NCBI RefSeq assembly: GCF_045037415.1
Contig: NZ_CP173438.1
Direction: 5' to 3' (one strand)
DNA length: 64,000 nt
Source: Escherichia coli
GTDB taxonomy: Bacteria > Pseudomonadota > Gammaproteobacteria > Enterobacterales > Enterobacteriaceae
This document shows, piece by piece, positions 15,241-18,200 of the stretch. Numbering within the stretch: the first letter of the stretch is position 1; every line of letters starts with the position of its first letter. The position numbers were made by a program.

Positions 15241-18200
15241 TTATAGCACAGTGGTGGTGACTTGACCACCGTGCGCATAGTGTCAGGCAGAGGTAAATTG
15301 CGGGATGTTATGCCATAACGGCCAGCTGAACGAGAAGCGGGCACCCCCCAGTTCGCTGGTGTCACAATTAACCGTACCGCCCATTGCCAGTGCTATAGAG
15401 TGGACAATGGCCAGCCCCAGCCCGCAGCCGCCGGTTGAGCGATCCCGGCTGGGATCGAGGCGAACAAAAGGTTCAAAGATATGTTCGCGGTTTTCTGGGG
15501 CAATCCCTGGGCCATCATCCTCAACAATTAATGTCGCTCTATTCCCCGACAGTAGCAGGCTGGTTTCAACCGTTGAGTGACAGTAGCGCAGGGCGTTATT
15601 GAGCAAATTATCCAGCACGCGCTCCATTAAGCGCATATCCAACGCAGCATAATGGCCTTGCGCGAGCGTTTTTATCCGTACCGTTTTATCGGGCGTTACT
15701 GCCTGAATATCTGCCAGATGCGTTGACAGCCACAACGGCAGGTCTGGTTCGCTAAGATGAAGCTCATTTTGTGGGCGATCGAGCCGGGCATAAGTCAGCA
15801 GCTCTTCAATTAAAGCTTCAAGTTGACTGATATCGCGATTCAACGCCTGGGATTCGGCGGCGCTCAGGTTATCGCTCATCTCCAGTCGATAACGCAGGCG
15901 CACTAACGGTGTTCGCAGTTCGTGAGCGATACCGTCAATAAGCTGTTTTTTGCTGGCAATCAAGGCGTTGATATTGTCCGCCATCTGGTTAAATGCGACG
16001 CCAAGTCGTTCAAAGCTCGAACCTTCATCAAAGTGGATACGCTCACTGAGATGCCCATCGCCAAATCGTTGCGCCGCTGCTTCCAGTTTTAACATATCCT
16101 GCCAGTGCGGACGCATCCAGATAAACACCGGAAAGGCGAGGGAAATGGCAATAAAAGCGATCAGGGCGATATCCAGCAATCGCATCTGATGGAGGTAATA
16201 AAGATAAGGAACAGGACCAACTGCCAGCACGTAGTGGCTGCGTGGGATACGTTGCAAAAAAGTGTACTGATCGTCCAGAGCGACAATTTCGCCGCCACGC
16301 AGCCGCTGAGTAAATATCATCAAGATGATATTTACTCAGCGGCTCGACACGCAGATCGAAAGAGAGATTTAAATCCATCTCTTTCAGCGTCTTACCCCAG
16401 TCGTGTGGGGGGATCTCACGCAATTCGCTGCGCATCAGATACAGCGAACTGTTCATCAAATCATCCAGCGACTGTTTGCCTGCGCGTTCGGCGGTAAATT
16501 TGTACACCAGCCCGACCAGCAGAGACATCACAAGGAAGCAGACAAACAATAACAGGTAAAACTGGATAAACAGTTTTTTCATCGCTTATTCCCACGCATG
16601 AGGCGCAAAAAGATAGCCTTTGTTACGCACGGTTTTAATACGATAAGGTTCTGCGGCGTTATCGAGCAGTTTTTTTCTTAACCGCGAAATAGCCACGTCC
16701 ACGCTACGATCCAGCCCGTCATAACTGACGCCGCGTAAATTTTTCAGCAATGCATCGCGGTCCATGATTTGCCCGGCATGGGTAGCTAATTCCCACAATA
16801 ATTCGAAATCAGCTGTCGAGAGCGAGATTTCAGTGTTAGCCAGGGAGACTACGCGGTTGATGGGATCGATGGTCAACGTGCCGAAATGCAGGGCTTTGTA
16901 GGGAGTCAGAGACGTTTCCTGAATACCTTTGGTCACTGTGGCTTGCTCATTCTGACGCAAATGCAAGCGTAAACGCGCTAACAAAACAGCAGGGGGCGTC
17001 GTTTTGAGAATATAGTCGCAGGCGCCCATTTCCAGTGCCAGGATGTGGTTCATATCGCTATCGAGAGAGGTTAGAAGAACAATCGGTCCGGACCACTTTG
17101 CGCGTAAATCACGACAAATGGTCATGCCGTCCTTGCCTGGTAGCATGATGTCGAGTAACACCAAATCCGGATTTTCTCGCAGAATAGTTTCTTCGGCCCG
17201 GTCGCCGCGCGGCTCTACGGTAACCTGCATATCATGTTTTGCCAGGTATGCGGCAATCAGTGCACCGACTTCCGCATCATCTTCCACAAATACGATAGTG
17301 TTCATAACATTCACGGTAGATATAAAAACGTCACAATACACCGCACTGTTTTTACTTACTATCAATCGTTTCTAAACAAGGTTTCATCAGGTATTCTACT
17401 GATGACTTGTTATGGAAGTGTTAAGGTAAAAAGATGGGGCTGGTAATCAAAGCCGCGCTCGGTGCGCTGGTAGTGCTGTTGATTGGTGTTTTAGCAAAAA
17501 CGAAAAATTATTATATCGCCGGGCTGATTCCACTTTTCCCGACCTTTGCGCTTATCGCGCATTATATTGTTGCCAGCGAACGCGGCATTGAAGCCTTACG
17601 CGCAACCATCATTTTTAGTATGTGGTCGATTATTCCCTATTTTGTTTACCTGGCGTCGCTATGGTATTTCACCGGAATGATGCGCTTGCCCGCTGCTTTT
17701 GTTGGCTCTGTTGCGTGCTGGGGAATAAGCGCATGGGTGTTGATTATATGCTGGATTAAGCTGCATTAACGCAGATGACGACCGCCATCAAGTGGGAGAC
17801 TGCGTCCGGTGACAAAGCAGCTGGTAAGTAAGTAATCGACCAGGTCGATCACTTCTTTCTCGCCAGGCGCGGTTTTCATCAGTGATTTATTCAGCGCCTG
17901 TTGTCGATATTCGGCATCATCATGTTCATTAAACAGGATCAGCGATGGCGCAATAGAATTCACTTTCACTTCCGGTGCCAGCTTGCGGGCAAACGAGCGG
18001 GTCATATTATCCAGTGCCGCTTTGCTTGCAGCATAGGCAATATGTTTGTCGCTACCGCGCTCCACCACATAATCGGTAAAGTGAATGATATCGCTGGCGG
18101 CGTGTCCGTGCCCACGCAGTAATCTTTCCAGAGCATGGTTGAGCAGGTATGGGGTATTAACGTGGATCTGCATCATGCAAGCCAGTACGTCGGTCAGTGG

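Follow-up and report, generated by a model that had tools for sequence, protein, structure and literature searches.

How does a sensor kinase gene come to be broken exactly at a perfect inverted repeat that lies within its own coding sequence? This question is raised by rstB in a stretch of 64,000 nucleotides of Escherichia coli DNA (contig NZ_CP173438.1 of assembly GCF_045037415.1), which was analysed as a whole and is called the window here. The original prediction, made from the sequence alone, was that a template switch between the two arms of an imperfect repeat had made the repeat perfect and had shifted the reading frame, leaving the response regulator RstA without its kinase. We compared the window with close relatives, searched for the allele in public sequence collections, and weighed the template switch against other ways in which such a palindrome could arise.

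The palindrome and the split reading frame

The two arms of the repeat (16301-16321 and 16324-16344, 21 nt each) are 100% complementary around a 2-nt centre, and on the + strand the 44-bp palindrome reads AGCCGCTGAGTAAATATCATC, then AA, then GATGATATTTACTCAGCGGCT. The window allele at the rstB site is ...ATTTACTCAGCGG..., and the repeat search confirmed the predicted 21-bp arms and 2-bp spacer within the coding sequence. This is the sole perfect inverted repeat in the 64-kb window with arms of at least 14 nt and a spacer of at most 12 nt, and dinucleotide-preserving shuffles gave no chance matches for it. As single-stranded DNA the new palindrome folds with -21.8 kcal/mol (z -12.3), and z-scores of the window palindrome folds range from -8.7 to -12.3.

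The frame of rstB is lost directly after codon I90, and from R94 onward the gene resumes in another frame, so that the two open reading frames listed in Table 1 agree with the predicted break after codon 90. The intact protein sequence given for this region in the original prediction, ...LDDI-SMH-RLRGG..., is correct for both the K-12 and the ST131 alleles.

Table 1. Positions of rstB, its inverted repeat and neighbouring features in the window
Feature	Position	Strand	Details and evidence
Perfect palindrome inside rstB	16301..16344	.	Repeat search, shuffles, ssDNA folding
Six new templated bases	16306..16311	-	ACTCAG in the coding sense, CTGAGT on the + strand; replace the ancestral 8-nt CCATGCAC (codons S91-M92-H93); alignments to SK1144, K-12 and JJ1886
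Donor bases in the unchanged arm	16334..16339	-	CTGAGT (coding); arm identical in the window, SK1144 and JJ1886
ORF of the rstB N-terminal fragment, 179 aa	16043..16582	-	Codons 1-90 native (16313-16582), then 89 out-of-frame codons and a stop
Rest of rstB (R94-A433 and stop), other frame	15283..16305	-	Encodes TM2, HAMP, HisKA and HATPase_c
rstA, response regulator, intact, 239 aa	16586..17305	-	Upstream of rstB in the same operon; ORF and annotation of relatives
TerB, between tus and rstB	15218..15240	-	1 mismatch to K-12 TerB; 1,061 bp from the palindrome; non-permissive face toward rstB

The ancestral allele and the origin of the new bases

Many ST131 genomes, among them JJ1886, JJ1887, MNCRE44, SA186 and 81009, are essentially identical to the window over stretches of 24-25 kb. 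When all 64,000 nt were aligned to the ST131 reference JJ1886 (NC_022648.1), the two sequences differed by 2 SNPs and the rstB event and by nothing else, with no other indel in the 64-kb window. The SNP at 3337 reflects a change private to JJ1886; the one at 9799 in manA (- strand, codon 364), is a synonymous GGT>GGG change (Gly364) that is private to the window relative to JJ1886 and SK1144. Relative to SK1144, the rstB event is again present, together with 8 SNPs and an indel of 1 nt in uidB. Judged from these alignments, the direct ancestor of the rstB gene in the window is an allele of the ST131/B2 type.

At the site, JJ1886, SK1144 and K-12 all read ATT TCC ATG CAC CGG (I-S-M-H-R), and the window reads ATT TAC TCA G CGG. 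Thus 8 nt (CCATGCAC) were replaced by 6 nt (ACTCAG), which is a net change of -2 and shifts the frame. The original prediction had described about 9 nt replaced by 7 nt (TACTCAG); its net effect was right, but the first T is shared by both alleles, and the minimal change is from 8 to 6 nt. The ancestor-like ST131 allele on the coding strand is ...GTCG AGCCG CTGAGT AAATATCATC TT GATGATATTT CCATGCAC CGGCT GCGT..., and hence the ST131 alleles (SK1144 and JJ1886) already contain an imperfect inverted repeat, composed of a 10-bp inner stem, a mismatch of 6x8 nt and a 5-bp outer stem. An alignment to K-12 rstB and other alleles had been proposed as a check, and it returned intact alleles with an imperfect repeat at exactly the same place.

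In the coding sense it is the 3′ arm alone that has been altered; it was shortened from 23 to 21 nt and now matches the length of the other arm. Neither the central TT nor the 5′ arm differs from the ancestor, and the outer stem CGGCT (5 nt) is the same before and after the event. Read in register, the six new bases correspond without exception to the reverse complement of CTGAGT in the opposite arm. The alignments therefore bear out the expectation that the new bases would be the exact complement of the opposite arm, and that they would turn an imperfect repeat into a perfect one at a net cost of 2 nt. Because the ancestor is known to within 2 SNPs in 64 kb, every one of the changed bases can be traced to its donor, and as a natural case of complex, templated mutation the locus is unusually clean.

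Two explanations without a template switch bear directly on these bases. The BLAST alignment can also be expressed as 2 mismatches and 2 single-base gaps, and the site could accordingly be read as two substitutions and two 1-nt deletions, or as a patch of error-prone repair, with the arms complementary by chance. However, this reading calls for four independent events within 8 nt, compared with 2 other differences in the whole 64 kb and a background of ~3e-5 differences per site, and a random 6-mer would match the opposite arm in full with p = 4^-6, or ~2.4e-4; we regard it as highly improbable. The second explanation is the footprint of a mobile element, in which a nearly precise transposon excision leaves a palindromic remnant, or else a small inversion between the arms. 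Some excisions do leave palindromic scars, but no foreign bases are present at the site; both arms are native rstB, and the source of the new bases is the opposite arm. With an inversion, CTGAGT would likewise have become GTGCATGG and the centre TT would have become AA, and neither is seen. Excision scar and inversion were both rejected from the sequence, and the probability that we leave to them is close to negligible.

Probable template switching at a quasi-palindrome

In the model of quasi-palindrome mutation (QPM), the nascent strand dissociates, pairs with the complementary arm, copies it and returns to its template, and the palindrome becomes more perfect (Ripley 1982, with PMC7202029 and PMC6357072, as the model is outlined there). 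The mechanism was confirmed genetically at the thyA hotspot of E. coli (Viswanathan et al. 2000; Dutra & Lovett 2006; both via PMC7202029 and PMC6357072), and has been followed with the lacZ reporters QP5 and QP6 (Seier et al. 2011; via the same two papers). The rstB site has a pre-existing quasi-palindrome with changes in one arm only, all of them templated, together with a priming stem and a homology for the return. Each consequence that the template-switch reading predicts at the level of sequence was found here: a prior imperfect repeat, change in a single arm, full templating, a perfect palindrome and the net -2. It is thus very probable, on this sequence evidence, that rstB was inactivated by a single, recent QPM of the Ripley type in E. 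coli of the ST131 lineage.

The replication steps that we infer are as follows. A nascent strand of rstB-sense polarity that had just passed the copying of GATGATATTT would fold back and pair with AAATATCATC, located on the same strand or, across the fork, on its sister. CTGAGT would then be copied as ACTCAG, possibly on into CGGCT, and the strand would return to its normal template through the 5-nt outer homology. In the outcome, S91-M92-H93 would be replaced by 6 nt, the palindrome would be perfected and the frame would be moved by -2. An identical product would also result if a mismatched hairpin or cruciform were repaired.

Folding energies suggest that this substrate differs between lineages. 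As single-stranded DNA with flanks, the window allele folds with -24.5 kcal/mol, compared with -12.8 for the ST131 ancestor and -6.6 for K-12 (z about 0 for K-12). The fold-back primer, that is, a nascent strand ending in GATGATATTT, reaches -5.0 kcal/mol (z -3.3) in the ST131 allele but -1.2 in K-12, in which the fold-back is weak because the inner stem contains a mismatch and the outer stem is missing. The stronger folds of ST131 argue that the ST131/B2-type allele is a more susceptible substrate than that of K-12.

The model also points to the strand of the event. The corrected arm would be the arm synthesised second, which implies rstB-sense polarity for the strand that switched. On the + strand of the window the GC skew is positive (+0.04 overall, and in 7 of 8 bins), so that the usual fork would run from tus to rstA and meet rstB head-on, and the nascent strand of sense polarity would be the lagging one. 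As an alternative, a fork moving in the opposite direction would have the sense strand as its leading strand and, 1,061 bp past the palindrome, would run into TerB at the non-permissive face. Spontaneous rates of QPM in the reporters are ~4e-8 on the leading strand and ~2e-8 on the lagging strand (PMC6357072, PMC7202029). QPM is known to depend on ExoI and ExoVII and to be stimulated by AZT or fluoroquinolones (PMC6357072, PMC7202029), and ciprofloxacin raised leading-strand QPM 674-fold (PMC6357072). A lagging-strand event at rstB, as given by GC skew for the usual fork, would differ from the induced reporter events, which are biased to the leading strand.

In other respects the rstB event resembles the thyA and lacZ cases, with an imperfect repeat as ancestor, a multi-base change templated by the other arm, a perfect palindrome as product, a frameshift and unchanged flanks. 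Unlike the events in reporters and at selected hotspots, it is a natural event in a lineage of clinical type, ST131; moreover, compared with the reporters, its tract bridges an asymmetric 6x8 mismatch with a net -2, and no recurrence was found in 573 genomes with the susceptible allele. It is also similar to the clusters explained by short-range template switching (the four-point model, 10.1101/2021.11.26.470150; yeast, PMC8604942), in that a local cluster of changes is one reverse-complement copy between nearby inverted sequences. It differs from the four-point-model clusters in being within-species and very recent (2 SNPs in 64 kb), in having an unambiguous ancestor and in knocking out a gene. 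The mechanism is well known and of textbook standing, and the rstB case is a new natural example from a single genome that would not surprise a specialist. Nevertheless, it indicates that quasi-palindrome template switching, a process studied mainly in reporter systems, inactivates genes in a pandemic clinical lineage as well, and that variant callers and annotators may log its products as clustered SNPs and indels or simply as a ‘frameshifted pseudogene’.

Distribution of the allele

The rstB allele of the window was found in 0 of ~5,420 complete E. coli genomes with rstB, in which the best full-length matches were 98.9% identical and represent the intact allele. The ancestral 186-nt allele is present at an identity of at least 99% in 573 of these ~5,420 genomes. 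No reference allele with the same palindrome in an intact frame, which would have spoken against the predicted origin, was found among the complete genomes. The 40-nt core of the palindrome had no exact match in 100,044 species-representative genomes or in JGI metagenome contigs, and the exact 179-aa product had no record in the gene-position index of public assemblies. When the out-of-frame tail was compared with 5.8 billion protein clusters, eight fragments matched and none had the window allele; the matches that span the site all retain LDDISMHRLRGG and are frameshifted elsewhere, and several contain more than one shift and resemble noisy assemblies. We found no report of the window allele in the literature on rstB frameshifts. 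The site is intact in ~5,420 genomes and the state in the window is therefore derived; by these comparisons, the allele is a private and recent mutation.

A search for the reciprocal +2 product, in which the other arm would have been corrected, did not find it, and its best match (97.9%) is the intact allele. Neither this product nor that of the window occurs in any of the 573 genomes that have the susceptible allele, suggesting either that the site is no evident hotspot in nature or that its products are purged. An inverted repeat inside a regulatory gene could also belong to a programmed or phase-variable switch that turns rstB on and off. In that case at least one of the two products would be expected to recur, but neither is present in the ~5,420 genomes, and both are also missing from the species representatives, metagenome contigs and proteins. 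Moreover, the mechanism that perfected the palindrome cannot reverse it, and there is no simple-sequence tract at the site and no recombinase nearby; such a switch has next to no probability.

A private allele in one genome also raises the question of whether the living strain has an intact rstB, with TCCATGCAC at the site, and the palindrome was created during sequencing, library preparation or assembly, by fold-back of a polymerase in vitro or by an error of consensus or polishing. Polymerases can switch templates at inverted repeats in vitro, and the absence of the allele from all other genomes, metagenome contigs and predicted proteins fits an artefact and a private mutation equally. However, chimeras formed by fold-back usually make up a minority of the reads and should be outvoted in the consensus, and the change is neither of the homopolymer type nor otherwise a typical error. 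Apart from this event, the window contains no private indel and differs from JJ1886 by just 2 SNPs, which indicates an accurate assembly, although this would still be compatible with a site-specific artefact. On balance, we consider an artefact unlikely and a genuine template-switch mutation by far the better account.

RstB, RstA and the surroundings of the operon

Intact RstB has the Pfam domains HAMP (163-206), HisKA (212-270) and HATPase_c (318-423), and by inspection has hydrophobic segments near residues 5-27 and 136-158. The 179-aa product of the window contains TM1 and ~63 native periplasmic residues followed by nonsense, and is without TM2, HAMP, HisKA and HATPase_c; thus no single ORF in the window holds TM1, the periplasmic domain, TM2 and these three domains together. 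The first in-frame starts of the downstream part (TTG and ATG at 16323 and 16320) lack a recognisable Shine-Dalgarno sequence and are covered by the translated ORF of the N-terminal fragment, and an independently translated truncated kinase is therefore unlikely; the same features make it unlikely that an internal restart yields a functional one.

RstA, which acts downstream of PhoQP, is an activator of asr and a repressor of ompF (PMC10746255), and the PhoQP-RstBA cascade is attributed there to Ogasawara et al. 2007 (as cited in PMC10746255). The gene in the window is the same as the rstB of this cascade, with the order rstA-rstB-TerB-tus, and outside the 8-nt change it is identical to ST131 rstB, but its frame breaks off after codon 90. 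Since the N-terminal product has lost HAMP, HisKA and HATPase_c, we infer that signalling by RstB is lost and that RstA is left without its cognate kinase, as had been predicted. Expression of the upstream rstA should be kept, and RstA would then rely on cross-talk or acetyl phosphate, without control by the phosphatase activity of RstB. The window would thus represent an ST131 isolate in which RstA is uncoupled from its sensor, an effect that is limited to one genome. The RstA-activated gene asr itself, at 27780-28088 (-) and ~11 kb from rstAB, is identical to that of JJ1886 and so is intact.

The palindrome would also be transcribed. In the rstAB mRNA (16271-16374, - strand) it is predicted to form a perfect 22-bp stem, with -46.8 kcal/mol including flanks (z -6.6). 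We considered this stem as an intrinsic terminator and rejected it because no U-tract follows the stem. A 22-bp RNA stem is long enough to be a conceivable target of RNase III, and it could affect processing or stability of the mRNA.

The orientation of TerB was read from the sequence, and K-12 has its exact site in the same position (569-591 of the K-12 comparison sequence); the face that blocks forks follows from the established polarity of Tus-Ter. TerB of the window is AATAAGGATGTTGTAACTAAAGT, with G for T at position 7 relative to K-12 TerB, a change that falls within the conserved core, beside GC6. K-12 TerC also has G at position 7, and by this analogy the TerB variant in the window is probably functional.

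The rstB event might be seen as something other than a random neutral scar, that is, as the product of replication stress and/or of a fork that overran TerC and was blocked by Tus at TerB, after which the loss of RstB was retained as advantageous in the host. This is speculative in each of its steps. First, the switch might have been induced by a replication stress typical of the history of the lineage, for example by ciprofloxacin; strains of this ST131 type are commonly said to be resistant to fluoroquinolones and to have a history of heavy exposure. Second, a fork past TerC would copy rstB with the sense strand leading, and the Tus block 1,061 bp downstream, with the helicase blocked and the fork regressed, would favour a switch. 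Third, loss of RstB might be retained through a host advantage. Taken together, we judge this elaborate account to be distinctly improbable; if true, it would mean that natural Tus-Ter barriers or antibiotic exposure shape templated mutations in clinical genomes.

Several other genes in the window appear to be decayed. uidB (5384-6756) is frameshifted by a CC>C deletion at 5844, which splits it into ORFs 5384..5854 and 5746..6756. This deletion is common to many ST131 genomes at 100% identity and absent from SK1144, and the annotation of JJ1886 gives uidB as a frameshifted pseudogene. We considered the 1-nt deletion as a sign of poor assembly and rejected this, as it is a lineage marker common to many ST131 genomes. 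uidC (6795-8061) is annotated as frameshifted in both JJ1886 and SK1144, and uidA (3576..5387) is intact; in the ST131 lineage the genes for the glucuronide transporter and porin appear to be decaying while the gene for the enzyme is kept. Further, a ynfF-like molybdopterin oxidoreductase gene between ynfE and ynfG (~36564-38056, - strand) carries the annotation of a pseudogene (frameshifted or partial) in both JJ1886 and SK1144, and since the window is identical to JJ1886 at this gene, the same pseudogene is present in the window. Another quasi-palindrome, imperfect and overlapping (30 nt, 73% complementary), lies around GGCCATGGCC at 6789-6838, at the junction of uidB and uidC.
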